A DNA stretch of 64,000 nucleotides from a virus (Duplodnaviria > Caudoviricetes), in the IMG/VR virus record IMGVR_UViG_3300024269_004845. One strand, 5' to 3'. A model generated the notes under the pieces. It did not search any database. It was not told the origin of the DNA and saw only the letters and a list, made by a program, of their open reading frames with translations. Of this stretch, positions 1-64,000 are shown in pieces. How positions within the stretch are numbered: position 1 is the stretch's first letter; the number at the start of each line of letters is the position of its first letter. A program made the position numbers and the translations under genes.

Positions 1-12
1 GCTCCTAAGATT

Positions 13-477
13 TTGAGCCGTCTAGAAGATGGTGAATTCTTTGAGGGCAAGATTATCAATATTTTACCTTATGGTGCTTATATTGATATTGATGGTGTAG
101 TTGGTCTTTTAAAGAATACCGATTATGCTGAGGACTATACATCTATTAAGGAAATGCATCACGTTGGTGATACCATTCAAGTTAAGATGAAGGGTCGTTC
201 TTCAAATGAAAAACTTTTATTTGAAGCTGTTACTAAGTATGTTAGTCCTACTGTTATTACCAGAGAAAGCCTTGAACCAGGTCAAATTATTTATGGTGTA
301 GTGAGAAGTGTTCAGCCTTGGGGTGTATTTGTTAATATTCTTCCAAACCTTGATGCTCTCGTGGATTCTGAGTTCGCTGATATTCAGGAAGACCAGAAAG
401 TTGCAATCAGAATTAAGTCTATTAAGCAGGATGATGACAAGTTTAAGGTTCGTGGTAAGATTGTAAGCATTCAGTAA
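13..477 (+). CDS. Tandem S1 RNA-binding domain protein (probably 5'-truncated by window edge)
   Basis: Two S1 repeats: GKIINILPYGAYIDIDGVVGLL and GVVRSVQPWGVFVNILPNLDALV. Confidence 0.75.
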   Translation: MSRLEDGEFFEGKIINILPYGAYIDIDGVVGLLKNTDYAEDYTSIKEMHHVGDTIQVKMKGRSSNEKLLFEAVTKYVSPTVITRESLEPGQIIYGVVRSVQPWGVFVNILPNLDALVDSEFADIQEDQKVAIRIKSIKQDDDKFKVRGKIVSIQ

Positions 478-491
478 AGGAGGTTGTCAAA

Positions 492-1421
492 ATGGGAAAT
501 TACATAACTAATACTTTTGATGGCTATTCTTTTGGTGCTGATTATAAGCAGGTTTTCCAAAATAAACCTGTTACTACCTTAATGCACGAAGAAATCATTC
601 GTATGCGTTTTAATGGTTTGATTACCGACGATGACCTGAAGGTTATTAAATTTATTTTTGATTTTAAATTTGCTACTCCTGGGATTATTGCTGATTATTT
701 AAATACTCAGGAGACAATTGAAAATATAACTAATAGATTGGATAGACTGGTTAAGAATCGCATTCTTAATAAGTTTATGTTGGCAATGATTCCTGAGGAT
801 TCTATTCCTGCAGATGCTCTTTGCATTTATTGCTTAGACCTTGGGGGCAAGACATTATTGTCTCAGTATTCTCATTGCGATATTGCAAACTGGAATACTA
901 CAAAAAATAACTGGAGTTCCGATAATATCGGATATGCTTTAGTAACTGCAAACTTTTATGTTCGATTGTTAAAAACTTGCCCTGGCAAACTTGAATATTT
1001 CAAGTCTTGCCCCGAATACAGAATTAATAAGATGGTAGTAATTCCTTCCTTTGAATTTTGTATTAAAGTAAATGGTATGCGCAAGTATTTTATTGGTGAA
1101 ATTGTTCGTGACTTTGATATTCCTATTGGATTTAGAACTAAGTGTGAAAAGTTGGAGAGTATTCTATGTACAAAGGCATGGATGAAATATTTCCATGATG
1201 CTGATGGGGTTCCTCCTGTTCTTTTCTTAATCGGAGAGAATGATTCTGTTGTTCTTGAAGCTGCTCAAATCATTTCTAATGTATCTGGTATTGGAGCATT
1301 TAGATTAACAACAGATGAACGAACTAAAAAGCTTCTCAACGAAGGCGGAGCATTCTTGAAGTATGATGTTGAAAATAATCTTCTAAAACCTATCAAAGCT
1401 TCTACTTTTGACCCAGAATAA
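492..1421 (+). CDS. Replication-relaxation (Replic_Relax)-like protein, catalytic motif degenerate
   Basis: N-terminal wHTH pattern ITDDDLKVIKFIFDFKFAT..RLDRLV..IYCL. The PD...E region reads IPSFEF...FIGE. GGAGG RBS. Confidence 0.6.
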   Translation: MGNYITNTFDGYSFGADYKQVFQNKPVTTLMHEEIIRMRFNGLITDDDLKVIKFIFDFKFATPGIIADYLNTQETIENITNRLDRLVKNRILNKFMLAMIPEDSIPADALCIYCLDLGGKTLLSQYSHCDIANWNTTKNNWSSDNIGYALVTANFYVRLLKTCPGKLEYFKSCPEYRINKMVVIPSFEFCIKVNGMRKYFIGEIVRDFDIPIGFRTKCEKLESILCTKAWMKYFHDADGVPPVLFLIGENDSVVLEAAQIISNVSGIGAFRLTTDERTKKLLNEGGAFLKYDVENNLLKPIKASTFDPE

Positions 1422-1438
1422 TTAAATATAAAAAAAAC

Positions 1439-1468
1439 GAAACCCCACGATGAGAATCGTGGGGTTTC
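1439..1468. terminator. Bidirectional intrinsic terminator
   Basis: GAAACCCCACGAT-gaga-ATCGTGGGGTTTC between convergent genes. Confidence 0.8.
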
Positions 1469-1486
1469 TTATATTTGTAGCAGATA

Positions 1487-3709
1487 TTACTTCTGCATGA
1501 GCAGCATACGTACCTGCTTAACCAGTTCCTTAGAAATATCCTGAGGAGCGCAAGAGATGAGGTTCTTCTCATACATTTCCTTGTACTCACTCATAGTATT
1601 TCGACGGAAACCTTCGTCGCCAAAGAAAATAGCGATAACCTTGATACCTGCCTTACGAGCATTCTTAACGGCAGTCTTAACGTCGTTGATTGCCTGAGAA
1701 TGACTGCGATAGTCAGAAGGCAAACCGTCGGACAAAACCATCAGAATCTTATTCTGTTCCGAGCGCTTCATCAGTTCAGCAGTTGCAACCTTGATGGAGT
1801 AACCATCTTTGTTGCCGCCGCTGAAGCTGCGGCTGGTGCCGTAAGAATAAGCGTAATTGCGAACAGTATCACGGTCTTCAAACTTCTTAACCTGGAAATG
1901 CTTTACACAGTTTCCTTCAGTTGTGAAGTTAGTAATCTTCATTGGCATGAGGGGCTTCAGAGCCTCTTCGATGATGGCACAAGCCATGGTAGAGCGCTTC
2001 TGCTTTTCGCCGCACATAGAACCAGAACCGTCCCAAACAATGCTTACGCAAGAATCTACGTTAAGAGGGTTGCCCTTCTTTTCGAAAATTCTGAAGTCAT
2101 TAGTACCAACTCTGTGGATGGACTTCTTGTTGAGTCTGCCAGAATGCTGGTCAGCGAGGTCGAAAGCTTCCTGCTCACGGAAGAAAGCTTCAAGCTGCTT
2201 ACGAAGCATGCGACCCTGCTTGCGAATTTCATCAGGAGCAGGGAGGCTCACATTTACGTTTACAGCGTCGTAACCTTCGACATGGGGGTCATCATAACCT
2301 TCGCGGATGCTTTCGATATCAGCGGAGCTGAGGTCTTCAGATGCGGCTTCTTCTGCCTCAATCTTCTTGGACTGAGAGGTGTATTCCTTAGCAGCGGATT
2401 CCATACCTTCTTCGATAGCTCTGTCAATTTCTGCTTTTACGGCTTCGTTGACTTCGTTGATATCAGGAGTGCTTCCATCGGCCTGCTTGTTGCCAGAAGA
2501 AGTGCCCTGTCCGTTGTTGTCAGCGTTCTGGCCAGAAGAATCTTCACCATCTTCGCTGCCACCACGTTCGGCATGGTCGGGAGCTTCGCGCTTCGCTGCG
2601 AACGGGTCCTTGGAATAATCCTTACCTTCTTCACCAGAAGAGGAACCCTTGGACTTGTCTTCGCCCTCCTTACCATCTTTACCGTCCTTGCCTTCTCCAT
2701 CCTTGGATTCGCCGTCTTCGCCGTCCTGGTCTCCGTTACCAGCGCCAGTGCCATCCTGCTTCTTATCGGACTTCTTGCCTGCCTGACCTTTACCATTGCC
2801 CTTTCCAGATTTGCCAGGGACACTGATATGGACAGAGAGAGAATCTCCATCGAGGTCAGAATCGGGGCGCTCAAGAGCATTCTTGTTCTGGAAATCGACG
2901 AATTCTGCCAGAAGCTCCATGATTTCCTGCATTGTGGCAGCATCTTCAATCTCGACTAGCAGAAGCTTTTCGAGATAAGGCTTCAGCTTAAGGATAATTC
3001 TCTGAAGCTTTTTAGTAGCTACCAGAGGGCCAGCAATGTTGATGAATTCTGCCACGTCCTTACGAACCAGGTCGACGTTATCGCGGAGTTCCTGGTCGAG
3101 CTTGTCGTAGTACTGAGGGTCTACACCACTGGTTGCCAGATAGCAAAGACACATCATCAGATTGACAACGTTACTCTTTGCAGGAGTATCTGCCATTTTC
3201 CAAAAAGTACCATTCAGGAACTTCAGGTACTTTGCGGAACCAGGATACTTATTGACCACAAAGTGCTCACAACGACCGTCTTCCAATGCATTGTTTAACT
3301 GAGCGGCGATTCTACGTACAACGAGAGGCAACATCTTCTTGCCAGTAGGAGAAAGCTTGGGCTCAAGGTTACTAAATTCCATGATTGCCCAATCCTGGAA
3401 TTTCTTGAACTGACTGAAAGAGCTGAAAAGCAAATGGCTAGTCTCGTGGATGAGCAACGCCATACCCATCATCCATACTTCCATAAAAGTAAAGTTGATG
3501 CCTGCCTTCTTGGAAGCTTCCTTGTGGCCAGGATGGGATTCTAGAGTGAATTCGGGGATGCCAACCGTCACGCCACGGCCATCGGTAAAACTACCGCCAC
3601 CGTAGGGAACGTTGAGACGCAGGTCATGGCGACCTGTCATCATGCACATCTTTCTGAATCCAATCTGCTTCAGCTGGTTCAAAAGTTTCTTCATTTCCTT
3701 GTCTGTCAT
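1487..3709 (-). CDS. CobT-like protein: N-terminal HExxH metallopeptidase-like domain, acidic/Gly linker, C-terminal vWA domain
   Basis: HETSH...NNALEDGRCE; MIDAS DGSGS and LSDGLP. Start moved to the ATG at 3709, which follows AAGGAGG. Confidence 0.8.
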   Translation of the reverse strand: MTDKEMKKLLNQLKQIGFRKMCMMTGRHDLRLNVPYGGGSFTDGRGVTVGIPEFTLESHPGHKEASKKAGINFTFMEVWMMGMALLIHETSHLLFSSFSQFKKFQDWAIMEFSNLEPKLSPTGKKMLPLVVRRIAAQLNNALEDGRCEHFVVNKYPGSAKYLKFLNGTFWKMADTPAKSNVVNLMMCLCYLATSGVDPQYYDKLDQELRDNVDLVRKDVAEFINIAGPLVATKKLQRIILKLKPYLEKLLLVEIEDAATMQEIMELLAEFVDFQNKNALERPDSDLDGDSLSVHISVPGKSGKGNGKGQAGKKSDKKQDGTGAGNGDQDGEDGESKDGEGKDGKDGKEGEDKSKGSSSGEEGKDYSKDPFAAKREAPDHAERGGSEDGEDSSGQNADNNGQGTSSGNKQADGSTPDINEVNEAVKAEIDRAIEEGMESAAKEYTSQSKKIEAEEAASEDLSSADIESIREGYDDPHVEGYDAVNVNVSLPAPDEIRKQGRMLRKQLEAFFREQEAFDLADQHSGRLNKKSIHRVGTNDFRIFEKKGNPLNVDSCVSIVWDGSGSMCGEKQKRSTMACAIIEEALKPLMPMKITNFTTEGNCVKHFQVKKFEDRDTVRNYAYSYGTSRSFSGGNKDGYSIKVATAELMKRSEQNKILMVLSDGLPSDYRSHSQAINDVKTAVKNARKAGIKVIAIFFGDEGFRRNTMSEYKEMYEKNLISCAPQDISKELVKQVRMLLMQK

Positions 3710-3798
3710 ATTTTTTATCCTCCTTAGTATTCTTACCATTTTTGTTTTGAGCTTAATATATTATATAATTAAGCTTCATGAATTATCTAATATAAATC

Positions 3799-3830
3799 AC
3801 AAAAACCAAGACCGAAGTCTTGGTTTTTGT
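3799..3830 (-). terminator. Intrinsic terminator after AAA+ gene
   Basis: ACAAAAACCAAGAC-cgaa-GTCTTGGTTTTTGT. Confidence 0.7.
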
Positions 3831-3839
3831 TTTCTGTGG

Positions 3840-5651
3840 TTACTTAATCATCAGGTCTACGATGCTCTTAACCGCTTCGCGGTCTTCAACATCACGAATC
3901 TTAGGAACGATGGTGCTCATGATAGCACTCTTGATATCGTTACCCAGAGCGATGTTCTGTGCAGCGTAGATGAATGCACGCTGAGAGAAGCTGCGCTCCT
4001 GAATCTCTACACCACGAACACCCTTCAGCTTCTTGTAAAGCTCGTTAAGAATCTTTACGGCCTTAGCGGGAAGAGTAGGAACTTCCTGCTTCAGGATTTC
4101 TGCGATGTTGTCAGGTGCCTCGAACTCGATTACGTGCCAACGGTCCTCAAAGGCGAGGTTCAGCATGCTGGTACCAGCATATTCTGCACCTTCGTTCATA
4201 GTGGCAGTAAAAATAACGTCGTCATTGACTTCGATATTCTTATAACCATTGATGAGGATGTTACGGCGCTTATCGAGGGCGCTGTGGAGAGAAGATGTCA
4301 CAGTAGGACGAAGAGTGTTTACCTCGTCCAGATTGATGAGAGAAGGCTTCTCGAGGGCCTTAGTAAGGATGGAGGGCTCGAACTCAATCTGTGCGGTCTG
4401 AGAACGCATAGCGTCAAACAGAACAGAATAGTCGATATCGCCACCATTTTCCTTAATGGTCTCAATCTGCTCTTCAACGGAAGCGTTAGCGAACGCTTCC
4501 TTATCAATCTTTGCATTTGCGATAGCATCGATGAAAGATGCAAACGCAGCATTTACTGCATCAGGAGAAGGACACTCCTCGCTTGGCTTCATGGACAGAT
4601 AACCGTACAGGCCTTCCTCATCCACACCTGCGGAACAGGTCTTATCGATGAGGTTCAAATCCATGAGGTTGGCAAAGGTGGTAATGAACATGTTCTTACC
4701 ACTACCAGCGGGGCCAACCAGAAGCAGGTTACCCTTGGCGTAAGAGAAGGCGATAGCATTCTCTACTTCCTTGCCATGCGGGATGTAACAAGGAGCAAAC
4801 TCCACGATGTCCTTATGTCCTTCCATCTTCTTCACGAAGAGAGCGATTGCGTATTCAGCAACGCCGACATTCTTCAGCCAGTCGATGCGCTTCTGAACTT
4901 CGGCAGCATCTGCTTCAGCAAAGGACTTCAGAAGCTTATCGTAGTCCTTAGAAGGAGCAGCGACAGCGGCAACCTCTTCCTTCACTTCAACGGTGATGGT
5001 TACAGGGAATACCAGACCATCTACGAACTTAACCTCTGCGGAAGTGTTCTTAGATACCTTCATCGCAGAAACGATATCAGCAACGTTGTCCAGCTTGATA
5101 CCCTTAGCATTTAGGGTAGTCTTTGCAGTAGAGGAAATCTCTGCGGTAGCCATACCGCAAGGAACCTCGTTGTAGTCAAAGACGATGGACTCGTCGTTTT
5201 CAATCTTGGCCACGACAGGAACGGAGCCATTCTTGCGGGAAGCGGAAGCAACCTGCATACGATTAGGGTAGTTGAGCTTATTGCCAGCCAACAGGGTCCA
5301 GTAAGTCTTGGTTACAGTTCCACTGGTAGGAGCAGCGGCTTCCTTAACAGGAATGCCCACCAGAAGAGGGTCAATAGATGTAACCTTAACCAAGTCACCT
5401 TCGGCAACCATATTGAAGACATCCTTTGCCATAGGATATCCATTTGCCGTAGAAGGACGGGCCGCAACGAAACCCACCTCATTGCCATCGGCGGTTTCGA
5501 GCTTGATTGCATAAGGGTCTTCCTTGTAAGTGTTCAAACGAACAACCAGACTATCGCTGGTAGTCAGTCCCTTTGCCATGCTCTTACTAGCGGGTCCAAC
5601 AACGCGAACCTCCTGAATTTCTACGGTATTGTTTTTCTTAGTTCTAGCCAT
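3840..5651 (-). CDS. MoxR/CbbQ/CobS-type AAA+ ATPase with N-terminal HIRAN-like domain(s)
   Basis: Walker A GPAGSGKN, Walker B INLDEVN, sensor ATMN, Arg finger LAFEDRW. N-terminal DPYAIKLETADGNEVGFVA resembles HIRAN. Confidence 0.85.
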   Translation of the reverse strand: MARTKKNNTVEIQEVRVVGPASKSMAKGLTTSDSLVVRLNTYKEDPYAIKLETADGNEVGFVAARPSTANGYPMAKDVFNMVAEGDLVKVTSIDPLLVGIPVKEAAAPTSGTVTKTYWTLLAGNKLNYPNRMQVASASRKNGSVPVVAKIENDESIVFDYNEVPCGMATAEISSTAKTTLNAKGIKLDNVADIVSAMKVSKNTSAEVKFVDGLVFPVTITVEVKEEVAAVAAPSKDYDKLLKSFAEADAAEVQKRIDWLKNVGVAEYAIALFVKKMEGHKDIVEFAPCYIPHGKEVENAIAFSYAKGNLLLVGPAGSGKNMFITTFANLMDLNLIDKTCSAGVDEEGLYGYLSMKPSEECPSPDAVNAAFASFIDAIANAKIDKEAFANASVEEQIETIKENGGDIDYSVLFDAMRSQTAQIEFEPSILTKALEKPSLINLDEVNTLRPTVTSSLHSALDKRRNILINGYKNIEVNDDVIFTATMNEGAEYAGTSMLNLAFEDRWHVIEFEAPDNIAEILKQEVPTLPAKAVKILNELYKKLKGVRGVEIQERSFSQRAFIYAAQNIALGNDIKSAIMSTIVPKIRDVEDREAVKSIVDLMIK

Positions 5652-5695
5652 GTTTTTTTCCTCCCATTAAAATCTTTTGTTTTTTGGATACTAAA

Positions 5696-6976
5696 TTATA
5701 CTGTGAAAACATACTCCATATAAGCCTTTTTAACTTCTTCATCTGGAGATTTTGCATTCACTTTTGTCAGGAGCTTATTGACTCCTGTGTTGAATTGCTC
5801 GAAAGTTTTCATCCGAAGATATGGCCTGACATCGCCAAATTCGGAGATAAGGTCATCGATACCTTTTGTTTCGTCGGTATAATCCCACAGTGCATATTCA
5901 ACGGAAATTCCGTTTGCTTCGAGTTCCTGGCCGAGTTTAGCAGCCTGAGTAAGAACATTAATATTATAGCACATATCGGAGTCATACGCAACGATTACTC
6001 CCGAAAACTTAGGATACAGGGCCTTAAGACCCTTGATGGTACTCATGATTGGGCGCCAATTCGTAACGCCCTGAATACTGATTGCTGACATGCCATACTG
6101 TTTTCTGATTGCAACAGCCTTGAAAAAGCCTTCGGTAATGAACATTTTCTTGGTAAATTTACCAAGTTCAAAGCCAATTGGGCTACCAGGGCTCAAACCA
6201 TCCTGCAGATATGCGTTGTCAGGGTCATCTTTCAGACAAAAGCTGGAAGAAAACCAAACATACTTGTTGTCAGCCTTTGGGTCTCTTTTTCTGATTTGCA
6301 ATCCAACAATTTTACCCTCAAAGTCTTTACATGGGATAATAATGCCAGACTGATATCCGAATGAGAAAGGCTCTCCTTCTTTTTTGAAAAATCCAGGGAC
6401 TTCAAACAAAACGTCTGTTGTTCCGAACTTTTCGGAGACCTTAGACTCTAATTCCTTACGCAGACTCAAGAGTCTGCGAGGAAACGTTTTGAAGCCATAG
6501 GTCTGAATTTCGTCATCCGTGAACCCTCTTGTCTTCAAAAGGGCTGCATCTTCTTCGCTTAATGTAAGCATATCGAGGAAAATTCGATAAACTTCATCCA
6601 TCACTTGAAGATTTAGGACTTTCTTGACCGAAGGAATGGTCAAGATTTTACGCTCTACATCAGTGGAAATACGACCACTGAAATAGCCGAGGTTGAATTC
6701 CTTGGCTAGGCGCTTAACAGCATCGACAAAGCTTAAGCTGTACAGCTCCATGTAGAACTTTACGGGGCCACCAACGATATCCAACTTCCAATCGTGGAAA
6801 ATATTATTGGGAACGTTGATATTAAAAGACCCCAAACTGCCAGAAGGACGAAGCGGGCTTACAGTTTTAAGATTAGGGCCAACGCCACTAAAAACGCAAC
6901 CTACTCCTTCCAGGACTTCTTTTATCGGAAGTGCATTGCACTGTTCCGATAATTCTTCAAATGACTTCTTAGCCAT
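5696..6976 (-). CDS. Primase-like protein: Cys-less CHC2-like domain plus TOPRIM (DUF3854-like)
   Basis: SPLR..GSFNIN..FHDW..GGPVKF..SFVDAVKRL; TOPRIM motifs FITEGFFKA, AYDSD, KGIDD. Confidence 0.75.
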   Translation of the reverse strand: MAKKSFEELSEQCNALPIKEVLEGVGCVFSGVGPNLKTVSPLRPSGSLGSFNINVPNNIFHDWKLDIVGGPVKFYMELYSLSFVDAVKRLAKEFNLGYFSGRISTDVERKILTIPSVKKVLNLQVMDEVYRIFLDMLTLSEEDAALLKTRGFTDDEIQTYGFKTFPRRLLSLRKELESKVSEKFGTTDVLFEVPGFFKKEGEPFSFGYQSGIIIPCKDFEGKIVGLQIRKRDPKADNKYVWFSSSFCLKDDPDNAYLQDGLSPGSPIGFELGKFTKKMFITEGFFKAVAIRKQYGMSAISIQGVTNWRPIMSTIKGLKALYPKFSGVIVAYDSDMCYNINVLTQAAKLGQELEANGISVEYALWDYTDETKGIDDLISEFGDVRPYLRMKTFEQFNTGVNKLLTKVNAKSPDEEVKKAYMEYVFTV

Positions 6977-6997
6977 CGTTATTCTCCTCCTCCCATA

Positions 6998-7597
6998 CTA
7001 GAACGGGCTTTCGCCTACCTTTCTTGACACATCCTCGCCCTGCTGTGTATTTCGTTTCGCATCTCTGATTTTGCGAACGTCGTTACACCACAGAGCTAGA
7101 ACATTTCTCAGAGAACCTACCTTAGTCAGCTTTAGCTCACCGATGATAGAAATCGTATCGCCCTTCAGAACATTCTGATGCAGATAAATCGCGTCTGCAT
7201 CAAAAGCGATGAAAGGCAAGAAGAGTACGATACCTCCATCAGACTTAGACTGGAAAGGAATGTCCTTCATCTCGGGTACGTACTGAATGGACTTCTCGTA
7301 CCGTTCTCGAGAAATATTTACTGCTACAGTGGGCATTCGCAGATTGCGAAGCTCAACAGGAACGCTAGGAGTGTTATGAACTACCTCTTTAACGCCATTG
7401 ATGACCACGTTGTTCGTGGAGGTGGCACCTCGTACATTATCCTTTACCAGATAAAACGGTGTCACCAGCTTACTGCTTCCCTTGCAAAGGAAAGGGAAAT
7501 CATCGGTGGTGTTGCCTACACACTGAACGATATTTCTATCTCTATCGTCGTGTACGGCAAACAGGTAGTTCAAATCCTTTTTGTTGTTCTTCTCCAT
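6998..7597 (-). CDS. Divergent single-stranded DNA-binding protein (OB fold)
   Basis: FLPFIAFDADAIYLHQNVLKGDTISIIGEL matches the SSB core. C-terminus ends in PF. Confidence 0.55.
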   Translation of the reverse strand: MEKNNKKDLNYLFAVHDDRDRNIVQCVGNTTDDFPFLCKGSSKLVTPFYLVKDNVRGATSTNNVVINGVKEVVHNTPSVPVELRNLRMPTVAVNISRERYEKSIQYVPEMKDIPFQSKSDGGIVLFLPFIAFDADAIYLHQNVLKGDTISIIGELKLTKVGSLRNVLALWCNDVRKIRDAKRNTQQGEDVSRKVGESPF

Positions 7598-13963: not shown

Positions 13964-15235
13964 GTGGCTAAAAGAGTTGAAAAAGTAATGAATGAATATA
14001 GCGATAGAGATTTTCAAGCATTGTTGTCTATATATAATTTTAGATGTTTGTCCATGAATCAATTGTTTGATTTACATTATAGATTTTCTGGGAAAAAGGA
14101 AGTGACTTCTGAGTATTTAAGAAAAAAGATTATTAAAATGAAGAAGGATAATCTAATTGAAGAATCTAGGCTTGTAAGTAAGAAGGCTCCTGTTGTCTAT
14201 TTTTTAACAAATGACGGAATCCAAGCCGTTCGCATGTATTTTAATTTGTCTAATAATATATATGATACTAAGAAGAGAATTCATGAAAGAGGATATTATA
14301 CTTATTCTGAAATAAAAGTGGCAGATAGATTTATTCCACATCAATATAACTTGAATCAATTTGCTTTGACTTCTATTGATTACTTAAAAAGTAAAGATAT
14401 TGGATACTCATATGTTGATGAAAGACATGTTTCTCAAACATATGGAATTCGACCAGATGGGATTTTATCGACTTTGGGGTTAGATATATTTTTAGAAATG
14501 GATATGGGAACCGAATCATTGTCTCAGTTGAAAGAAAAATGGAATCATTATAGGAGTTATTTAGGGTCTCAAAGCTATATAGATAATGGGAAAAAGATTA
14601 TTATATTTTTCATTTGTTATAATAAAGGCAATATTACGGAAAGAATTAAAGTCATAAAAAATTCATTAAATGAGCATTTTATAGATTGTTTAAAAGAAGT
14701 TGAAGTGTATGTGGGATTACCAGAAAAATTAATGTCGGTATTAAAAAACATAATTGTTCCTTTTTACACGACTGGCAAAAGTGAAATGTATGAAGAATTA
14801 ATTACCAATATTAAACGACATGAATTTAAAGTTGCTTCTGGTATTCAAATGGCAAAATATTTAGACAATACAAATTATACATTTTATATTAAAAATGAAG
14901 ATGGGAAAGATTTTTTAGTTCATGAATTTTTTGGAGAACCTATCGGTGCTATGAACAGAGTCGTTTTCCATGAAAAAATTAATAATTTATTTGAGAAAAA
15001 ATTTAATAAATCTTTGCCATTACTTTTGATTGGAACAAACGAAGATACAATAATTGAAAATATAGATTTATTTGTTGTTTCTGATATCCCAAATGTATAT
15101 TTTTCTACATTAAAAAGGTTGAATACTATGCCTTTTAATGAAGCATTATTTAAAATAATGCCAGATGGTAGTATTTATTCATTCACTGAAGACTTTCAAA
15201 ATATAAAACAAACGGAGAAAATAAATAAAAAATAA
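13964..15235 (+). CDS. Replication-relaxation family protein (MOB_C-like relaxase candidate)
   Basis: SDRDFQALLSIYNFRCLSMNQL, YFLTNDG, HQ, intact IRPDG...FLEMDMGTESLSQLKEKWNHY. Confidence 0.8.
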   Translation: MAKRVEKVMNEYSDRDFQALLSIYNFRCLSMNQLFDLHYRFSGKKEVTSEYLRKKIIKMKKDNLIEESRLVSKKAPVVYFLTNDGIQAVRMYFNLSNNIYDTKKRIHERGYYTYSEIKVADRFIPHQYNLNQFALTSIDYLKSKDIGYSYVDERHVSQTYGIRPDGILSTLGLDIFLEMDMGTESLSQLKEKWNHYRSYLGSQSYIDNGKKIIIFFICYNKGNITERIKVIKNSLNEHFIDCLKEVEVYVGLPEKLMSVLKNIIVPFYTTGKSEMYEELITNIKRHEFKVASGIQMAKYLDNTNYTFYIKNEDGKDFLVHEFFGEPIGAMNRVVFHEKINNLFEKKFNKSLPLLLIGTNEDTIIENIDLFVVSDIPNVYFSTLKRLNTMPFNEALFKIMPDGSIYSFTEDFQNIKQTEKINKK

Positions 15236-15417: not shown

Positions 15418-16761
15418 ATGTTTAGTAGTACTAATGTAAAAATGTTAAACAAAAACAAATATAAGACAACCGAAAAAACATTGGCTCAAAAGATATTTTT
15501 TACGTCAATGATTTTAGTAATTCTTCAATTTTTATCTCAAATTCCTATTTGGGGGATAAACCGAGATTTAATTAGTTTTTGGTTAAATAGCGACATGAGT
15601 GGTATTTTTGGAATATTTAATATTTTTTCTGGTATGTCGTTTGAGAATCTTTCATTCTTTGCTTTAGGTATTGCGCCATATATTAGCGCATCAATTATTT
15701 TGCAATTATTGAGAGTTGCAATTACTCCTTTGGACCAGATGTGTAAAGACGCACAAAATGAAAAGAAGTTTGTAGAAAAAATTACTTATGGGTTTGCAAT
15801 TATTATTGGTATTTTACAAGTGATTCCTTTGGTGATGAATTTTTCGACTAGCGGTTTATTGGTTAATAACAGTTTTTCTTGTAAGCTTTTAGTTGGTGCT
15901 TCCATCTTATTCGGTAGTGCGATAATGATTGCTTTAGGCAAGATAATTGAAAATAAGGGGATTGGTAATGGTATTTCATTAATATTGTTAATGAATATCT
16001 TGTCATCTATGCGTGGTGACTTCATAAATATTTATAATACTTTTATTTACAATAACGAAATTACAACTATTATTTTAACTGTTTTGATTGCTGTACTGGT
16101 CCTGACATTTTCTTTTGTTTCCGTTATTTATCTGTGTGAAGGGAAGAAAGATATAAAGGTTACTTTTTCTGGTAAAATGCATGGCGGGAAAATGGTTAAA
16201 TCTGCAGATAATATTATTCCCCTAAAGGTTAATATGTCTGGTGTTATGCCAGTTATTTTCGCATCTACATTAATTCAATTGATTCCTATGATTACTGCCA
16301 TACTAAATGTTTCTGAAACTAGTATCTTGAACGAAATTTCAAAATATTTTAATCAAATATATTGGTTTGATTTTTCGAATATCCAATATACTTTTGGTAT
16401 CTTAATTTATTTTGTATTGATTGTCTTTTTTTCTTATTTTTATAATATGATATCTTTCAGTTCAAAAGATATCGCTGACAATCTTAACAAGCAAGGTGGA
16501 ACAATTGCAGGTATTAGGCCAGGTAAATCAACTAAAGAGTATTTAGATGGGCAAATTAAGTATATGGTATTATTAGGTTCGTTAATGTTAATTATTATTT
16601 CTATTATTCCAATGATTATTGGTGGAGTAATCAACATTAACTTAGCTTTTGGGGGAACATCTATTATTATTGTAGTAAGCGTATTAATTGAAACTTATAA
16701 AACAATTAAATTGGAAAAACAGAGAGAAACTGTTGCTCCTAGAAGATATAGCGTATTTTAA
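15418..16761 (+). CDS. secY: Preprotein translocase subunit SecY
   Basis: FALGIAPYISASIILQLL, GIGNGISL, IPLKVNMSGVMPVIFAS, GIRPGKST, FGGTSIIIVV. Confidence 0.95.
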   Translation: MFSSTNVKMLNKNKYKTTEKTLAQKIFFTSMILVILQFLSQIPIWGINRDLISFWLNSDMSGIFGIFNIFSGMSFENLSFFALGIAPYISASIILQLLRVAITPLDQMCKDAQNEKKFVEKITYGFAIIIGILQVIPLVMNFSTSGLLVNNSFSCKLLVGASILFGSAIMIALGKIIENKGIGNGISLILLMNILSSMRGDFINIYNTFIYNNEITTIILTVLIAVLVLTFSFVSVIYLCEGKKDIKVTFSGKMHGGKMVKSADNIIPLKVNMSGVMPVIFASTLIQLIPMITAILNVSETSILNEISKYFNQIYWFDFSNIQYTFGILIYFVLIVFFSYFYNMISFSSKDIADNLNKQGGTIAGIRPGKSTKEYLDGQIKYMVLLGSLMLIIISIIPMIIGGVININLAFGGTSIIIVVSVLIETYKTIKLEKQRETVAPRRYSVF

Positions 16762-18664: not shown

Positions 18665-19717
18665 TTATTCGACGTTGAAGAGGTCTTCTTCATTTCCTGG
18701 TTCATCTTCGTCAACAACAGGGGTACCAGGTTCCACATTGACACAGCGAAGCTGGTCTTCAATTTTCTTAAAGATGTCTGGATTTGTCTTTAAGAAATCA
18801 TATACGGAATTTCTTCCTTGTCCAATTCTTTCTCCATCATAAGAGAACCAGGAACCAGATTTAACTATAAGATTTTTTTCTACTGCAAAATCGATAAGAC
18901 TTAGGATTCTATCAAATCCTTCGCCAAAGCGAACTTCTACAATAGTTTCCTTAAACGGAGGAGCTACCTTATTTTTAACAACTTTGATTTTGGTCTTGGC
19001 TCCAACAACTTCGGAACCTTCTTTGGTTGCTTCAGCTTTTCTAACTTCTACTCTGATAGACGAGTAGAATTTTAATGCGCGTCCACCAGTGGTTACTTCG
19101 GGATTGCCATACATGACTCCAACCTTTTCTCGAAGCTGGTTAATGAAGATTACTGTACAATCCATATTGGAAGCGATTGCTGTTAGCTTACGCATCGCTT
19201 TCGACATTAATCTTGCATGCAGTCCAACAAAGTTGTCTTCCATTTCTCCTTCGATTTCAGCCTTTGGAACAAGAGCTGCTACAGAGTCGATAACGACTAA
19301 ATCAACAGCTCCAGAAGAAATTAAATCACAAGCAATTTCAATTGCCTGTTCTCCATTGTCAGGCTGAGAGATAATCATATCATCAATATTTACTCCCAAC
19401 TTTGCAGAATATACAGGGTCTAAAGCATGTTCTGCATCAATAAATGCAACCATTCCATCATGGTCTCTTTGGATTGCTGCTACGGCCTGTAATGCAAGGG
19501 TTGTTTTACCCGAAGACTCTGGGCCGTAAATTTCAACAATTCTACCTCTTGGCAAGCCTCCGCCAAGAATATTGTCAATGGCAACAAGGCCTGTTGAAAA
19601 TTTCTTGACATCGCTAATACCGCTATCGCTCATAAACATAGCAGCGCCTTTGCCAAACTTCTTGTCAATTTCGTTGAGCTTTTTCTTTAAAAGCTCTCGT
19701 TTTTCCGCACTTGGCAT
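18665..19717 (-). CDS. recA: Recombinase RecA
   Basis: GGLPRGRIVEIYGPESSGKTT, DAEHALDP, FINQLREKVGVMYGNPEVTTGGRALKFY. Confidence 0.98.
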   Translation of the reverse strand: MPSAEKRELLKKKLNEIDKKFGKGAAMFMSDSGISDVKKFSTGLVAIDNILGGGLPRGRIVEIYGPESSGKTTLALQAVAAIQRDHDGMVAFIDAEHALDPVYSAKLGVNIDDMIISQPDNGEQAIEIACDLISSGAVDLVVIDSVAALVPKAEIEGEMEDNFVGLHARLMSKAMRKLTAIASNMDCTVIFINQLREKVGVMYGNPEVTTGGRALKFYSSIRVEVRKAEATKEGSEVVGAKTKIKVVKNKVAPPFKETIVEVRFGEGFDRILSLIDFAVEKNLIVKSGSWFSYDGERIGQGRNSVYDFLKTNPDIFKKIEDQLRCVNVEPGTPVVDEDEPGNEEDLFNVE

Positions 19718-20860: not shown

Positions 20861-21409
20861 TTATGCTACAGGCAAGAAAAAATGGACTATGAATAGAACA
20901 ATATATCCTGCGTAAAAGAATGGGGCAAGGGGGACCCTGCCAGTTGCTTTAAAAGGTAAATATCCAAATTTACCTAAGCTTTGTATGTGGAATTCTTTAT
21001 TTTCTTTTTTGCCAAACATTACTCTATATACTAAGTTTAACAATGTACCAGCTAACGCGAGAAATAATGCAGGAATAGCACCGCACCAAAGTCCTAAATT
21101 AAAAGCGAATTTAATGTCTCCACCTATTTGGTCTTTTGCCATTGCCGCTGGAATCCAGAAAGCTAGGCACAAAATAAATGCTCCAAATATACAGTCCAGT
21201 ACATATCCTAAAGATATTAAATCTGGGAAGAAAATACCTAAAATAACAAACCAAAGAGTTCTAACAATTAACATTACCAAGTTAAACTTGTTATATATCT
21301 TCATAGTTTTGCAATCGGTATATGTAGCAATAATTAAGAAAATGTTTAAAATAATAATTTCTGGAAGAAATTCAAATAATCTTAAGATTGGGTCAAAAAT
21401 ATATTGCAT
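20861..21409 (-). CDS. A24 family prepilin peptidase (TadV/CpaA-like)
   Basis: ATYTDCKTMKIYN, GGDIKF, VPLAPF; multi-TM. Confidence 0.8.
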   Translation of the reverse strand: MQYIFDPILRLFEFLPEIIILNIFLIIATYTDCKTMKIYNKFNLVMLIVRTLWFVILGIFFPDLISLGYVLDCIFGAFILCLAFWIPAAMAKDQIGGDIKFAFNLGLWCGAIPALFLALAGTLLNLVYRVMFGKKENKEFHIQSLGKFGYLPFKATGRVPLAPFFYAGYIVLFIVHFFLPVA

Positions 21410-21564: not shown

Positions 21565-22950
21565 ATGGCTATTTGGATTAAGAAAGGATATTCCACGTTG
21601 GCTAGATACAATAGTCTTTCTTATATTTTCAACAATCCATCAGATGTAAATATCGATGAAGATGAAAATTTGGGGCTTTGGACTACGAAGTACGTTGGCA
21701 ACGAGTTATTCCTTTACAAATTGGATTTTACACGAAATGAAAAGGTTATCTTCTTCAAAGAAGTTGAACCTCGACTAATCGCAAGTTTTAACGATGATGG
21801 TGAATATACCACTGGCGATGGGCTCACCTTCATGCATGCAGTCTACAATAATATTGTAGATATTAACCCTATTGTGAATTTCCTGCGAGATTCCATGATT
21901 AAGAACGAATGTCTGTATAAACTCTTTTTCTTTGATGAGAACTTTGCTGATAGAGTCAATAGAAGTCGTAGAAATGCGGAATACAACGTGTCCATGAATG
22001 TTTTTGAGAATATCTTAAACAATGGGCTTATTTCTCTGGAAAAAGTGTTCACTGGTTGTTCGCTAGCTTTTTTTGTAGATAATATCTGCAAGGGAGATAT
22101 GGGTCTTCAGAATGACAAAAAGAAGTTGAGACAGGTGTTAGGATTGCCTTCGGCAGTCATCGATTTCCTGAAAGACAGTTCTTATTCTTCTCTTTATGGC
22201 AAATTTAAGGAACTTGCAGAAACAAAGGATGTCAATGATACCGTGTTCTTGGTCGAATATATGGCCTTGTTACGCCAAGTTGAGGTGCAGACCAGTCTAA
22301 TCAGTAATGGTGCTAGAAATTCTTTCGTTGAGAGCGTCATTGATATCGCACTTATGGTTAAGTCCAGTATGAAGGTAATTATCAATTATTTGCATACTCA
22401 GCAGTTTTATTACAACGAAATTGGTATGGGCATTATGATGCCTTATTCTGAAGCTATTGCGATGAGAGATTATCTTGCCATTGCCAAAAAGCATGGGCTT
22501 GAGGTTGACCCTCTACCGTCGAATCTTCGTGCAGCACACTTTTACATTCAGAATAACGTTTGCTATGCAGATGACGAAGCAAAGAATGAAGAGTTTAAGA
22601 AAGCTGTTGCGAAATATAGGAATTTGGAATATAAGGGAAAAACTTATTCAGTCGTTGTTCCTGATTCGATTGGCGCGATGATTGATGAGGGTATGCAAAT
22701 GCACCATTGTATCGCAAATTATGTTGACCTTGTTTGTACTGGTACAATCGTTCTGTTCTTGAGAAAAACCGAAAATCTTAAGGAATCTTTTGTGTCTTTT
22801 GAGGTTTCTGAGGATGGAGAATTCGTTCAGATTAAGGGAAAATATGATGCTGATATCGTTGAAACAGAAGAGGAGTCTGAGAACAACGAAGTTCTTAAGT
22901 TCCTAACAAAATGGAGGGAAAAGAAATATGAAGAAGTATATGGCAGCTGA
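21565..22950 (+). CDS. PcfJ-domain protein, copy 1
   Basis: RDYL..P.NL.AAH..EGMQMHHCIANY..VLFLRK..SFVSFEV..VQIKG. Confidence 0.85.
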   Translation: MAIWIKKGYSTLARYNSLSYIFNNPSDVNIDEDENLGLWTTKYVGNELFLYKLDFTRNEKVIFFKEVEPRLIASFNDDGEYTTGDGLTFMHAVYNNIVDINPIVNFLRDSMIKNECLYKLFFFDENFADRVNRSRRNAEYNVSMNVFENILNNGLISLEKVFTGCSLAFFVDNICKGDMGLQNDKKKLRQVLGLPSAVIDFLKDSSYSSLYGKFKELAETKDVNDTVFLVEYMALLRQVEVQTSLISNGARNSFVESVIDIALMVKSSMKVIINYLHTQQFYYNEIGMGIMMPYSEAIAMRDYLAIAKKHGLEVDPLPSNLRAAHFYIQNNVCYADDEAKNEEFKKAVAKYRNLEYKGKTYSVVVPDSIGAMIDEGMQMHHCIANYVDLVCTGTIVLFLRKTENLKESFVSFEVSEDGEFVQIKGKYDADIVETEEESENNEVLKFLTKWREKKYEEVYGS

Positions 22951-24073: not shown

Positions 24074-24090
24074 ACGCCTTCATTTTTGTT
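24055..24090 (+). terminator. Intrinsic terminator closing PcfJ module 1
   Basis: AAAATGAAGGCGT-ataa-ACGCCTTCATTTT followed by T-rich sequence. Confidence 0.75.
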
Positions 24091-24117
24091 TTCTATTTCT
24101 TCTTATTTTTCATTCTA

Positions 24118-24143
24118 AATATTTATATAATAATATAAGCACA
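24118..24143 (+). promoter_or_regulatory. Conserved upstream motif copy
   Basis: AATATTTATATAATAATATAAGCACA, identical to 7620-7645(-). Confidence 0.7.
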
Positions 24144-24175
24144 TATAAACAAATTAACAAGGGAGGAAAATTAAA

Positions 24176-25609: not shown

Positions 25610-25623
25610 GGAGGATAAAAAAT

Positions 25624-26793: not shown

Positions 26794-26833
26794 ACTAAAA
26801 GACCCCTATCGAAAGATAGGGGTCTTTTAGTTT
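26792..26833 (+). terminator. Intrinsic terminator closing PcfJ module 2
   Basis: AAACTAAAAGACCCCTATC-gaaa-GATAGGGGTCTTTTAGTTT. Confidence 0.8.
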
Positions 26834-26911
26834 TTGCTTTTATTTTTCTGAGTTCAACTTTGTATAATAATATTAGCACAACAAAAGAAAATCAAATGGG
26901 AGGAAAAATTT

Positions 26912-28261: not shown

Positions 28262-28281
28262 CAAAATGGAGGAGAAAAAAC

Positions 28282-51151: not shown

Positions 51152-52141
51152 ATGGAAAACAAGACTAATCTCAAGGCATGTGTGTTCGTGGGTGTTTCTA
51201 CTCGTGGTGGCACTCGAGTAATTTCTCTGGCGAATCGTGGCGTTCGTCACAACAACTCTGTGGTCATCTACAAGGATGCTACCGTATATGAGAGCAAGAA
51301 AAATCTGGAAGATGCTCTCTACAAGCTGTCTCGTCAGGCAACTCAGGGTTGTCCTTTTCCTGGCGTTTACGCCATCCCCGAAGAAAGCATTCCGCTGCTT
51401 ACCAAGATGATTGACAATGCAGAGGCTGCTTTCGATGCAGGTATGAAGGAAATTGAGGACAACTATGATGCTCTTAAGAAGGCTAACTGGACAGAAGTTG
51501 AAAGTGCAATTTCCAAGATGGGCAAGACTGAACAGGCTGAAGTCACGAAGATGTTTAATTCTCACTATCCCGATGTGAATGAGATTAAGCGTACTCGCAA
51601 GATGCATGTGACCATTCTCACCAGTCCTTTCGGTATGCCTTCGAACATTGACCTGCTTTCTGAGCGTATCGCTGATACTGCGCAGGAACTGTTCAAGAAG
51701 GCCGTATTCGCAGAGCTCGTACCCGTTTACTCCGCTCTTGCAACATACTATACCAAATTGAGCAACGGACAGGAAGTCGGTATGAAGTCTCAGAATCACT
51801 TCCGCGATAAGGTTGTTCCTGAGCTTTCCGAAACGAATACTATTCGTCGTGATGGGTTCACCGACAAGGTTATTCAGGCCGTCAAGTACAATCTGGATAG
51901 CGTTTTCGAAGACCCTATGATTTGCTACAATATCCTTCTGAATATCTATGAGGAGGCCAAACAGAACGGTATGGAAGATGAACTTCCCGACCTGGCCGCT
52001 CTCGAAGTTCAGAAGCTCAAGGGCGTTACTACTCCTGCATATCTTCTGACTCTCGAAATGATTGAGGAAGATGTACCTAATCGCACTCCCATTGATGACA
52101 TGGTGGGTCGTGTAGATGTATCTGCATTGGAGGTGATGTAA
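51152..52141 (+). CDS. DUF3150-like protein
   Basis: FPGVYAIPEE..L..IDN..F...IEDNYD..W..YP pattern recalled for DUF3150; GC-richer codons. Confidence 0.5.
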   Translation: MENKTNLKACVFVGVSTRGGTRVISLANRGVRHNNSVVIYKDATVYESKKNLEDALYKLSRQATQGCPFPGVYAIPEESIPLLTKMIDNAEAAFDAGMKEIEDNYDALKKANWTEVESAISKMGKTEQAEVTKMFNSHYPDVNEIKRTRKMHVTILTSPFGMPSNIDLLSERIADTAQELFKKAVFAELVPVYSALATYYTKLSNGQEVGMKSQNHFRDKVVPELSETNTIRRDGFTDKVIQAVKYNLDSVFEDPMICYNILLNIYEEAKQNGMEDELPDLAALEVQKLKGVTTPAYLLTLEMIEEDVPNRTPIDDMVGRVDVSALEVM

Positions 52142-52779
52142 TGGATATTTTCGGATTCGTAGGACCATCAGGCAGTGGTAAAACATTGCTGACAAGAGCA
52201 ATCGAAGCGTTTTTCAAAACGAAGGCGATGGGTATGATTCCTAATGGTTATGAACCTATTATCATTGAGGCCGTAAAAGCCAACATGCATAAAGAGGTTA
52301 AGCCTATCGGGGATAAAGTCGTTACAAAGGAAGTAATCAGCCATACTACAAGAAATCCTCGTAAAGGGGAAATCAATGGCATTCATTATCACTTTGTAAG
52401 TGTAGAAGAGTTTAAGGCTCTCGAGAAATACGAGGAAACCATTTATAACGGTGACCATTATGGCTTGACTGTAAATGCTGTAAATGAGGTTTTGCGTTTC
52501 GCAGAATTTGCTATTGCAGTTGTTGACCAGAAGGGTATCGAAAATATTCGTCGTATAACTCCTGATATCCGTGCTATCTTCATCAAGACTACGTTGGAGG
52601 TCATGGAGGAACATATGAGAGCTCGAGGCGATTCTGAAGAAAACATCGCTAAGAGGCTGAACAATGCGGTTGCGAACAATGAGTTGGAATTTCCTGGTGC
52701 CGATTATGTAATCGATAATACTGGGGAACTTTCTAAAACTCTTGGAGAGGCAATCGATATTATCGAATCTTTCCGATAA
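52141..52779 (+). CDS. Guanylate kinase-like protein
   Basis: GPSGSGKT, SHTTRNPRKGEINGIHYHFVS, RGDSEENIAKRL. Confidence 0.85.
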   Translation: MDIFGFVGPSGSGKTLLTRAIEAFFKTKAMGMIPNGYEPIIIEAVKANMHKEVKPIGDKVVTKEVISHTTRNPRKGEINGIHYHFVSVEEFKALEKYEETIYNGDHYGLTVNAVNEVLRFAEFAIAVVDQKGIENIRRITPDIRAIFIKTTLEVMEEHMRARGDSEENIAKRLNNAVANNELEFPGADYVIDNTGELSKTLGEAIDIIESFR

Positions 52780-55250: not shown

Positions 55251-55288
55251 CAAAAAGCCGAATCTTTCGATTCGGCTTTTCTTTTTTT

Positions 55289-60897: not shown

Positions 60898-60998
60898 TAA
60901 CGCAGTATATAAGCATAATTATTAATTATTTATTATAATATAAAAGATGAAGAGTCGTTTATTATGACTATTTGAAATAATTGAAAGGAGTTGTTTTC

Positions 60999-61277: not shown

Positions 61278-61314
61278 TTAATTTTAGTTTTTTGAAAGAG
61301 GTGGCGAATTAAAA

Positions 61315-61692: not shown

Positions 61693-61747
61693 TTTACATA
61701 ATAATAGGGTTGGCAAAAGCCAACCCTATTATTGTTTTTATATTTTG

Positions 61748-62635
61748 TTAAAGCGGGAATTTGCTTATTATTTCTACTTTTTTGTTGTATTCATTTATTT
61801 TTTGTTGCGCGGTTTCTTCCATTTCTAGTATCATAGAATTTGCCATTTGTTTTTTGGATTGCCAATTCTCTCCTGTGATTTTGTATTTAAGGATTGCTTC
61901 TTTTATTACCCCAACTGTTGCAAGTTCTGTTTCTGCAGACTCTCTTTTTGCGTTCAGGTCTGCAAGCAACTTCTCCTTTGTGGAGTTAAAAGAAATATCT
62001 TTTTCGAAAAATTCATCACATGTCTTTATTATGGAAGTTCTTAACTCTGATGGGTTTTTAGAGATTAAATCTTCTTTATTTTCTACATAATTAGATAAAA
62101 TTTCATCTATTGAAGAAAGAAATTTTGACTTGTTTTCTTCCATGTTGTCTTTTGTTCTATATTTATTTTCTGTAAAAAAACGAATTTTTTCCTTTAAAGA
62201 AAACTTATCTATTAATGCCTCTGATAAAAATAAATTTTGATTGATTGCTAGAAAATTGTTCGTTAGGTCGTTCTTATATTGAACATTATTCATTATACTT
62301 AAAATGGTATTAACATCTAATGTTGACTCCATAATAAGATTGTTAATGTTCCCTGCATGTCCTAAATATTCTAATAAACATTCATTGCTAACATCTGAAC
62401 TTTTAGTTAGGTCAAATGGAATAGAAATGATTTCATATGGCTCAAATACCGTGCCATTATTTTTGATTGCTAGCTGTCTAGAAGGCTTTGAGTCTGCCTT
62501 TTGTTGCATCTTTGTTAATTTTTTACTATAAACTGCTTCAATTTCTTCAATTACAAATACTGCTCCATCTTTGGCATATAGCATTCCTATTGGAGTTGTT
62601 GATACTTTATTTTTTGAAAAAGAATCTAAAAACAT
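61748..62635 (-). CDS. Hypothetical protein, helical C-terminus
   Basis: GGAGGT RBS; no motif recognised. Confidence 0.55.
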   Translation of the reverse strand: MFLDSFSKNKVSTTPIGMLYAKDGAVFVIEEIEAVYSKKLTKMQQKADSKPSRQLAIKNNGTVFEPYEIISIPFDLTKSSDVSNECLLEYLGHAGNINNLIMESTLDVNTILSIMNNVQYKNDLTNNFLAINQNLFLSEALIDKFSLKEKIRFFTENKYRTKDNMEENKSKFLSSIDEILSNYVENKEDLISKNPSELRTSIIKTCDEFFEKDISFNSTKEKLLADLNAKRESAETELATVGVIKEAILKYKITGENWQSKKQMANSMILEMEETAQQKINEYNKKVEIISKFPL

Positions 62636-62809
62636 AATAGAACCTCCCGATAAAACTTTTAAAATAAATTATTTAGACTATATTATTATATAATAATATT
62701 GTATAAATAATTGCTGTAATCGTTTTGACAAAAGATTTTGGGTTTTACTCTTGATTTTTTTGTTTGGATGTGTTATGATAAATACAAAATATTTTTGGAG
62801 GGTTGAGAG

Positions 62810-63217
62810 ATGAAAAAAATAGTAACTTTGATTTTAGTCATCTGTATGGCTGTTGGGGTTATGTCTTTAACTGGCTGTTCTAAAAATGAATCCAATTCTG
62901 ATATTAGAATAGCCGTTTATAATACTAGATACAATGGTGATTTGCAGAATGACTACCCAGATTATATTCTTACAAGTGATAAAGTGTTAGAAATGATTGA
63001 TTCTGGTACTGGTGATGGTCCTCTTGAAGAGTATAGTGAGGTTAGAGTACTTCATAAATTGGTTTATTATAATGAATCAGGAGAAGAGATAACTGTTATC
63101 ATTCAGAATATTGGTAAGGTTACATATATGCGTATCGGGCTTCCTCAAGCCGTGCATTATTTGACAGACGCTGAACTTCATGAATTGTTGCTAGAAATAA
63201 CTGGGGCTAATAAGTAA
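62810..63217 (+). CDS. Small lipoprotein
   Basis: Lipobox LTGC; upstream TTGATT..TG.TATGAT promoter. Confidence 0.7.
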   Translation: MKKIVTLILVICMAVGVMSLTGCSKNESNSDIRIAVYNTRYNGDLQNDYPDYILTSDKVLEMIDSGTGDGPLEEYSEVRVLHKLVYYNESGEEITVIIQNIGKVTYMRIGLPQAVHYLTDAELHELLLEITGANK

Positions 63218-63261
63218 GTAAAAGGGCCCAAATAATGGGCCCTTTTATAATTATTATCATT

Positions 63262-63915
63262 TTATGCGTGTTTCTTCTCTCTGGGCTTTCTAGAATAATT
63301 GGGGTCAATGGAAATTTTAATATTCTCGAGATTGTAGCCCAATTCAACCAGTGCCTTTTTTAAGAAATACATATTGTTAATTGCAAGCTTTGCGACATCC
63401 ACATAAACAGCGTTGCGACCAGAGCCAATCATTGCGGGGTCAGACATATCCTGGTTTGTTTTTGCAAAATAAAGATGTCGGTCTCCATTAACATTGGGGT
63501 TATCACAGAGTGTCATGAATTTGGAAGCATCTTTATTGTATGCCATTCTGCAGGCCGTTTCGGTTAGAGAACGGAAACTATTTACGAGTTCAGTTTTTCC
63601 GTCCATTTCGATGGATACAGGTCTTTTGTTGGTTAAGTTTTCCGTAATGGCAACAGTGGTAGTTTCCACATCTGTAATGGGGTTGCTTTGAGAATTGTTT
63701 TCGTTTTTTGAACTATTTTTATTTTTCTTCTTGGGCTTAGGTTCATTTGCGTAGGAATCATTTAAGATGGAATCTACATTGTTAATCATTTGAATTTCTT
63801 TGGAAAGTTCTTCGATTTTCTTTGTGTCTGCATTTACTGCGGCAGAAAAAAGTTCTTTAGAAGCGATGTCCTTTTCGATGTTGATAATTTCTTTGATTTT
63901 GTTAATGTGAGTCAT
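63262..63915 (-). CDS. Protein with C-terminal SeqA-C-like DNA-binding domain
   Basis: TNKRP..RHLYFAK..P..I..VYVD..LKKAL.ELGY pattern resembles SeqA-C-like domains. Confidence 0.4.
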   Translation of the reverse strand: MTHINKIKEIINIEKDIASKELFSAAVNADTKKIEELSKEIQMINNVDSILNDSYANEPKPKKKNKNSSKNENNSQSNPITDVETTTVAITENLTNKRPVSIEMDGKTELVNSFRSLTETACRMAYNKDASKFMTLCDNPNVNGDRHLYFAKTNQDMSDPAMIGSGRNAVYVDVAKLAINNMYFLKKALVELGYNLENIKISIDPNYSRKPREKKHA

Positions 63916-64000
63916 TTTAAAAGCTCCTTTTTAAAAATTTGAGGTTTCTAATTTGATTATTACCTAATTTAATCATTTTATTCATGGAGGAGGTTTGTTT

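Follow-up and report, generated by a model that had tools for sequence, protein, structure and literature searches.

Staphylococcal phage K, with a genome of ∼140 kb, is free of GATC and evades Sau3A restriction (PMC6532042), and about a tenth of prokaryotic viruses eliminate some site completely or nearly so (Rusinov et al. 2018, PMC6286503). Plasmids also avoid Type II targets, the mobile and broad-host-range ones most strongly (Shaw, Rocha and MacLean 2023, PMC10359461); according to the same authors, avoidance is found mainly in small plasmids, large ones rely on methylases, and avoidance of 4-bp targets is difficult for plasmids of that size. Here we describe the 64,000 bp of IMG/VR virus record IMGVR_UViG_3300024269_004845 (34.0% GC; this whole stretch is called the window below), which, judging by its genes, probably belongs to a large plasmid-like, conjugative element from uncultured Firmicutes (presumably Clostridia) of animal guts, and from which both GATC and CCGG are absent.

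Like phage K, the element combines full elimination of GATC with a Firmicutes mobile genome of >100 kb, and the presumed agent, a GATC-specific Type II enzyme, is the same; phage K is a virulent phage, whereas the present element is plasmid-like, with conjugation-type genes, and lacks CCGG as well. With the viruses analyzed by Rusinov et al. (PMC6286503) it shares the kind of word avoided, the orthodox Type II palindrome; those viruses, however, have known hosts, while the present element has a conjugation-type gene set and a candidate host class. With the plasmids of PMC10359461 it shares the depletion of Type II targets, as well as the alternative of carrying a methylase, seen here in a related lineage (L015, see below); the difference is that a large element, with relatives on contigs of 0.2–0.9 Mb, is fully free of two 4-bp targets. 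The element family is thus an exception to the plasmid size rule in degree, though the same in kind. The mechanism is textbook; the value of the case lies in a large element purging two 4-bp words against the expectation set by PMC10359461.

The literature on giant plasmids of gut Firmicutes, as searched here, contained no account of this element family; the nearest described type is the Inocle elements of oral Streptococcus (245–368 kb, ∼32% GC, with VirB4/VirD4, tRNA and DNA-repair genes; Kiguchi et al. 2025, PMC12340149). Likened by description only, both are giant and plasmid-like, have similar GC content, carry VirD4 and DNA-repair genes and were previously overlooked in metagenomes; the source of Inocles is human saliva and their candidate host Streptococcus salivarius, whereas the present family has been met in gut samples, those of pigs and ruminants among them. 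Neither GATC nor restriction is mentioned in the Inocle paper (PMC12340149).

Exact word counts, covering both strands, gave zero for both words in the window. GATC was expected 178 times under a maximal-order Markov model, 200 times from base composition and 213 ± 13 times in 100 dinucleotide-preserving shuffles, none of which came down to the observed level; the corresponding expectations for CCGG were 37, 53 and 56 ± 7. Poisson probabilities of a zero count were ∼7e-78 for GATC and ∼6e-17 for CCGG. As a fourth null model, synonymous codons were shuffled 200 times within each of the 58 called genes, with proteins and codon usage kept; the genes should then have contained 158 ± 9 GATC (minimum 138) and 37.8 ± 4.9 CCGG (minimum 24), and they contained none. 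Control words in the same genes matched the codon-shuffle means: 177 versus 176 for TCGA, 202 versus 202 for AGCT, 56 versus 55 for GGCC.

The original prediction, made from the letters by eye, had described GATC as fully absent where well over a hundred sites would be expected, CCGG as absent in the parts checked, and other palindromes and CCWGG as common; it had also proposed exact counts of 4- to 6-mers against a Markov expectation. These descriptions were borne out. The null models give 158–213 GATC sites, CCGG is missing from the whole window against 37–56 expected, and the totals of TCGA (193), AGCT (219), GGCC (65), GTAC (104) and CCWGG (47) are near expectation, with observed-to-expected ratios (O/E) of 0.92 for GGCC, 0.98 for CTAG and 0.99 for AGCT. 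Among the 256 tetramers GATC and CCGG alone had zero counts, and no comparable outlier was seen among the remaining 4-, 5- and 6-mers of the window.

The next most depleted palindromes were CGCG (20 versus 43 expected), ACGT (91 versus 127) and CATG (152 versus 199). The approximately two-fold depletion of CGCG was also seen in the window genes (18 versus 35.7 ± 4.7 in the codon shuffle); CGCG may be a third, partly avoided word, under weaker or more recent pressure by a CGCG-specific enzyme. In the relatives L001, L009, L010 and L013 (introduced below) observed/expected CGCG counts were 2/10, 0/6, 1/8 and 0/3. At the other extreme, GATG/CATC, one step away from GATC, was the tetramer with the highest over-representation in the window (O/E 1.49).

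Both words are removed at the DNA level by synonymous codon choice, with no need for amino-acid change. Aspartate before a codon starting with C was encoded by GAC in 102 of 102 cases (elsewhere ∼76% GAT); isoleucine after a codon ending with G was never encoded by ATC (0/199); serine after an nGA codon was always AGY (21/21; elsewhere 70% TCN). Codon pairs that would create CCGG, namely CCG followed by G, C followed by CGG, and nCC followed by a glycine codon, were never seen. Sequences from which the words could arise are not in short supply: 3,094 tetramers of the window are one substitution away from GATC, and 1,184 from CCGG.

The purge extends over all classes of window sequence (figures given below as x/y are observed/expected). 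The 45 genes of an AT-rich class, with GC content at third codon positions (GC3) of ∼0.2–0.3, have GATC 0/107 and CCGG 0/17; the 13 genes of a GC-rich class (GC3 0.37–0.53) have GATC 0/72 and CCGG 0/17; intergenic DNA has 0/8.7 and 0/3.6. The GC-rich genes lie in three blocks:

1487..7597, − strand: VWA/CobT-like protein, AAA_5 ATPase, DUF3854/DnaG-like primase and a 199-aa protein (Pfam)
21565..29505, + strand: three cassettes, each a PcfJ-domain protein and its partner (Pfam PcfJ x3; GC3 0.38–0.50)
51152..52779, + strand: Mnt-like repressor motif protein and guanylate kinase-like protein

The PcfJ cassette region is syntenic in the relatives L001, L011 and L013, where it is free of GATC and CCGG too. 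That both codon classes are long-term residents, as had been proposed, is supported: both are purged, and GC-rich blocks (the PcfJ cassettes and the DUF3854 primase) are syntenic and purged in diverged relatives.

Relatives of the element were traced with two markers, RecA and the coupling protein of type IV secretion. RecA relatives of 94–81% identity were found on syntenic contigs, the next matches (∼62%) being ordinary chromosomal RecA of Clostridia; coupling-protein relatives, all metagenomic, formed a gradient from 95% to ∼50% identity. According to the records, the samples are gut metagenomes, of pigs and others; study codes, read from labels, suggest pig and ruminant surveys. JGI 3300024270 and ENA ERZ27248314 are among the samples with the element. 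The contigs L001–L006, L009/L010, L011/L012, L013 and L262 are syntenic with the window at ∼70% DNA identity (the relatives on which persistence rests having RecA of 81–83% or coupling protein of 73–76% identity), and all are free of both words: e.g. GATC 0/61, 0/22, 0/23, 0/67, 0/44 and 0/30, and CCGG 0/17, 0/10, 0/12, 0/20, 0/6 and 0/5. A JGI contig identical (100%) to window positions 53262–64000 extends 9.9 kb beyond the right end, with GATC 0/33 and CCGG 0/7. Given 3,094 neighbours of GATC and ∼70% DNA identity, neutral drift would yield >100 GATC per 64 kb in each lineage; such a gain is not seen, and selection must therefore have been continuous in each lineage.

Two groups of matches were set aside. 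RecA matches P0008 and P0009, whose bit scores had suggested distant copies of the element, turned out to be ordinary chromosomal recA–recX loci and were used as controls. The coupling protein alone had no match in GTDB species genomes; in a profile search its best matches (55% identity) were in Clostridia metagenome-assembled genomes (MAGs), and these loci were rejected as host of the window lineage, having ≤55% identity and no absolute avoidance.

When coupling-protein sequences were placed in a maximum-likelihood tree, 12 rows formed a giant-element clade with support 98/98. Words absent from members of the clade were as follows:

Window and L011: GATC, CCGG
L013: GATC, CCGG, GGCC, GCGC, CGCG (the last three with expectations of 3–7 each)
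L262, grouping with L013: GATC, CCGG, GCGC (GCGC expectation within 3–7)
L265: CCGG, GGCC
L015: CTAG, CCGG, GGCC, GCGC
L017 / L276 / L266: GATC, CATG (0/54 and 0/45 in L276)
L018 (563-kb contig, 25% GC): GATC
L014 and L016: none

Outside the clade, or at more distant loci, we saw:

L268/L269 (314-kb contig), outside the clade: GATC, GGCC
L270, outside the clade: CATG (0/43)
L275, outside the clade: GGCC
L020–L023 (Clostridia MAGs) and L024/L025 (Paenibacillus): none
L027 (more distant Bacillus locus): CCGG (0/10)
L028 (more distant Bacillus locus): GGCC (0/10)

Thus, at least eight different avoided sets, 'none' included, are present across the coupling-protein tree. In lineage L015 GATC is retained, with 41 sites over 21.6 kb, and CTAG is 0/37. 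Its coupling-protein gene is flanked by two D12-class adenine methylase genes:

3381–4229 of L015, + strand: D12-class adenine methylase
12248–13291 of L015, − strand: D12-class adenine methylase

Among proteins of solved structure, one of them is closest to T4 Dam (E 5e-46), DpnM and Escherichia coli Dam, each a GATC methylase; the second has no relative of this kind. Judging by these matches, it appears that GATC is met either by purge or by self-methylation within this group of elements.

GATC is the target of enzymes of the DpnII/MboI/Sau3AI type, and CCGG of those of the HpaII/MspI type. As a proxy for the host we took the class to which G001, the genome with the nearest relative, belongs; we treat this class as Clostridia. 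Genes of DpnII-family nucleases were present in 37 of 399 scored genomes of the class (9% of species representatives) and those of HpaII-family nucleases in 13 of 399, two genomes having both. In these two genomes O/E was 0.34–0.35 for GATC and 0.13–0.25 for CCGG; many sites on such chromosomes are expected, because cognate methylation protects this DNA. Genome by genome, presence of DpnII was no predictor of chromosomal GATC depletion, with O/E from 0.11 to 1.39 among carriers.

These observations are best explained by classical restriction-site avoidance in an element that spreads horizontally, and we consider this explanation likely to be correct. Purifying selection on synonymous and non-coding positions would have removed every GATC and CCGG site, the agents being two common classes of orthodox Type II enzymes. 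DNA free of sites would be uncuttable whatever its methylation state, even by methyl-dependent GATC enzymes of the DpnI type, and the element could enter new recipients armed with GATC or CCGG enzymes with no need for a methylase or an anti-restriction protein. We infer that restriction is the selective agent and that the host range includes strains of the DpnII type and of the HpaII type. Long selection to cross restriction barriers, as put forward in the original prediction, finds support in the synonymous purge, its persistence in relatives, the lineage-specific sets and the nuclease families of the candidate class. The purge would imply that a giant element with its own RecA and SecY very often enters new cells unprotected, which amounts to a strongly horizontal lifestyle.

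Several points weigh against this explanation. Depletion of GATC is common on Clostridia chromosomes, and the host lineage may have some of the signal in common with the element. Conjugation brings in single-stranded DNA, maybe methylated by the donor, and restriction pressure may then be weaker. Why avoidance became absolute is a matter of argument. About 74 kb of the element has been read, and the remainder could carry methylases or nucleases. The cognate nucleases are known from genomes of the candidate class, and the comparison with chromosomes is by proxy. Finally, the element is known from contigs, and it is gene content that speaks for conjugation.

One alternative is that the chromosomes of carriers equally lack GATC and CCGG, and that the absence in the element is just part of a composition common to both. 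In 52 chromosome stretches of 8–20 kb from genomes of the class, GATC O/E varied from 0.07 to 1.39; it was 0.5 or lower, an at least two-fold depletion, in 26 of the 52, and a few stretches were depleted ∼10-fold. Median O/E over stretches was 0.47 for CTAG, 0.50 for GATC, 0.54 for GGCC, 0.58 for CGCG and 0.83 for CCGG; the three most depleted words, CTAG, GATC and GGCC, are all among those purged by element lineages, and CTAG was absent from six 20-kb samples. Some genomes are low in both words of interest (GATC and CCGG O/E of 0.14 and 0.17 in G014, 0.15 and 0.30 in G090). However, none of the 52 stretches was free of GATC or CCGG, the minimum being 3 GATC per 20 kb, and even at O/E 0.07 the probability of no site in 64 kb is <1e-5. 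In the most depleted genomes, sampled more widely (GATC 0.14–0.23, CCGG 0.17–0.58), GGCC, CTAG, CATG and others were always depleted too, whereas the element is normal for GGCC, CTAG, AGCT and TCGA; moreover, sister element lineages differ in the purged set. A host-lineage signature is therefore unlikely; absolute, word-specific absence, seen on none of the sampled chromosomes, fits DNA that enters cells unprotected.

One could also speculate that the element is armed itself, with GATC and CCGG nucleases and no cognate methylases, its own freedom from sites serving as immunity, e.g. while competing DNA is degraded. There would be room for such genes, since no family could be given to ∼28 of the 58 window genes and the window covers only a minor part of the element; yet no methylase or restriction-nuclease family was matched among the 58 genes (Pfam) or among 20 unannotated proteins searched also with PADLOC, and such nucleases would cut the host chromosome as well unless the host methylates both words. 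We regard this as very unlikely. Loss of methylated sites by biased mutation, with no selection involved, would have a natural starting point in CCGG, a classical target of 5-methylcytosine formation, but the deamination products are at expectation rather than enriched (O/E 0.93 for CTGG and 1.04 for CCAG), N6-methyladenine at GATC is not mutagenic, the replacements are diverse (e.g. serine switches from TCN to AGY), and absolute absence in spite of ∼3,000 and ∼1,200 one-step neighbours requires selection; decay of this kind is highly improbable. A technical artefact could stem from systematic errors of base-calling or assembly at methylated motifs, a known difficulty of some long-read base-callers with methylated GATC, or from a library made with these very enzymes. 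Still, several relatives are short-read assemblies (MEGAHIT or SPAdes) from separate studies, and an artefact of base-calling or assembly is excluded because these independent assemblies, along with the identical JGI contig, share the absence; with replacements that are codon-aware and of several kinds, the chance of any technical origin is practically negligible.

Having returned to restriction-site avoidance, we may tentatively extend it: the lineages could make up a superfamily, so far undescribed, of giant conjugative elements in Clostridia of the gut (contigs of ∼0.2–0.9 Mb) that behave towards restriction as virulent phages do, each lineage fully purging its own set of 4-bp palindromes and a sister one methylating instead. 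We place this proposal a little short of probable. If true, it would break the published rule on size, under which purging short targets is out of reach for large plasmids, and the purged set would be a heritable record of the restriction enzymes, hence of the host range, met by each lineage. Clean differences in the sets, together with the one switch to a methylase, offer a sequence-only handle on the restriction systems and hosts faced, and avoided sets could guide host assignment of uncultured element lineages.

Distant relatives of the coupling protein were seen on very long AT-rich contigs (25–33% GC): L018 with 563 kb, P0218 with up to 928 kb and L269 with 314 kb. These contigs carry mainly orphan genes, along with genes for ParM/ALP, prepilin peptidase and signal peptidase. 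Elements near 1 Mb, or small chromosomes, may belong to the superfamily.

The assignment of the window to a plasmid-like element was made from genes annotated by Pfam, the main features besides the GC-rich blocks being:

9550–10239: RuvC (Pfam)
10844–11086: MazE/AbrB-type antitoxin-like gene (E 8e-10)
13964..15235, + strand: Replic_Relax-domain protein, relaxase-like (Pfam PF13814, E 1e-18); kept beside RecA in relatives
15418..16761, + strand: element-borne SecY homologue (Pfam SecY, E 1.5e-74)
18665..19717, − strand: element-borne RecA (Pfam RecA, E 5e-119)
20861..21409, − strand: prepilin-type (A24) peptidase (Pfam Peptidase_A24, E 6e-8); kept in relatives
32840..34762, − strand: type IV secretion coupling protein, VirD4/TraG family (Pfam T4SS-DNA_transf, E 5e-65; TraG-D_C; TrwB_AAD_bind)
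35281..37071, − strand: HerA/DUF87-type ATPase (Pfam DUF87, E 4e-19; AAA_10 match below cut-off)
41445–43688: RNB-family ribonuclease (Pfam)
53922–54452: signal peptidase I (Pfam)
55289–57649: topoisomerase (Pfam)
60981–61277: HU (Pfam)

RecD2 and a Mre11-Rad50-like protein are also encoded in the window (Pfam). The coupling protein and the relaxase-like protein, whose Pfam family we take to cover pLS20-type relaxases, suggest conjugative transfer. The DUF87-type ATPase could possibly be a VirB4-like transfer ATPase or HerA, judging by its domain matches. As to genes of the mating pore, the T4SS_pilin match in the window is weak, and most neighbouring genes have no family. A megablast search with 20 kb gave no match in phage and plasmid collections, and IMG/VR held no relative closer than 26% identity. 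On the other hand, a protein at the window edge was found unchanged on >24 metagenome contigs, and nine collection blocks hold contigs of 0.2–1 Mb carrying it.

Within 10 kb beyond the right end, the 100%-identical JGI contig encodes another protein that weakly matches T4SS-DNA_transf (L342:1–264), the second such gene, and an orphan protein of 1,870 residues. The housekeeping-type genes (SecY, RecA, RuvC, RNB, topoisomerase, signal peptidase I and HU) are mostly single-gene units amid orphan genes. The MazE/AbrB-type gene is followed by a 236-aa orphan with a weak PADLOC match to PD-T4-6, and both are kept in L001 and L004; from these matches, the two may be a toxin–antitoxin or defence pair.

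The GC-rich class (1487–7597, 21565–29505, 51152–52779) is nearly devoid of TTA, CTA and TCA codons; for TTA we saw e.g. 0 among 27–55 leucine codons, while the AT-rich class uses TTA for about half of its leucines. Because these codons are nearly missing, full-length antisense open reading frames free of stops are present at 1700–2959, 3612–5114, 24110–25630 and 51125–52201. Two regimes of translation may coexist on one element; one possibility is that the GC-rich class represents establishment genes tuned to host codon usage (cf. PMC13478746, on plasmid leading regions).

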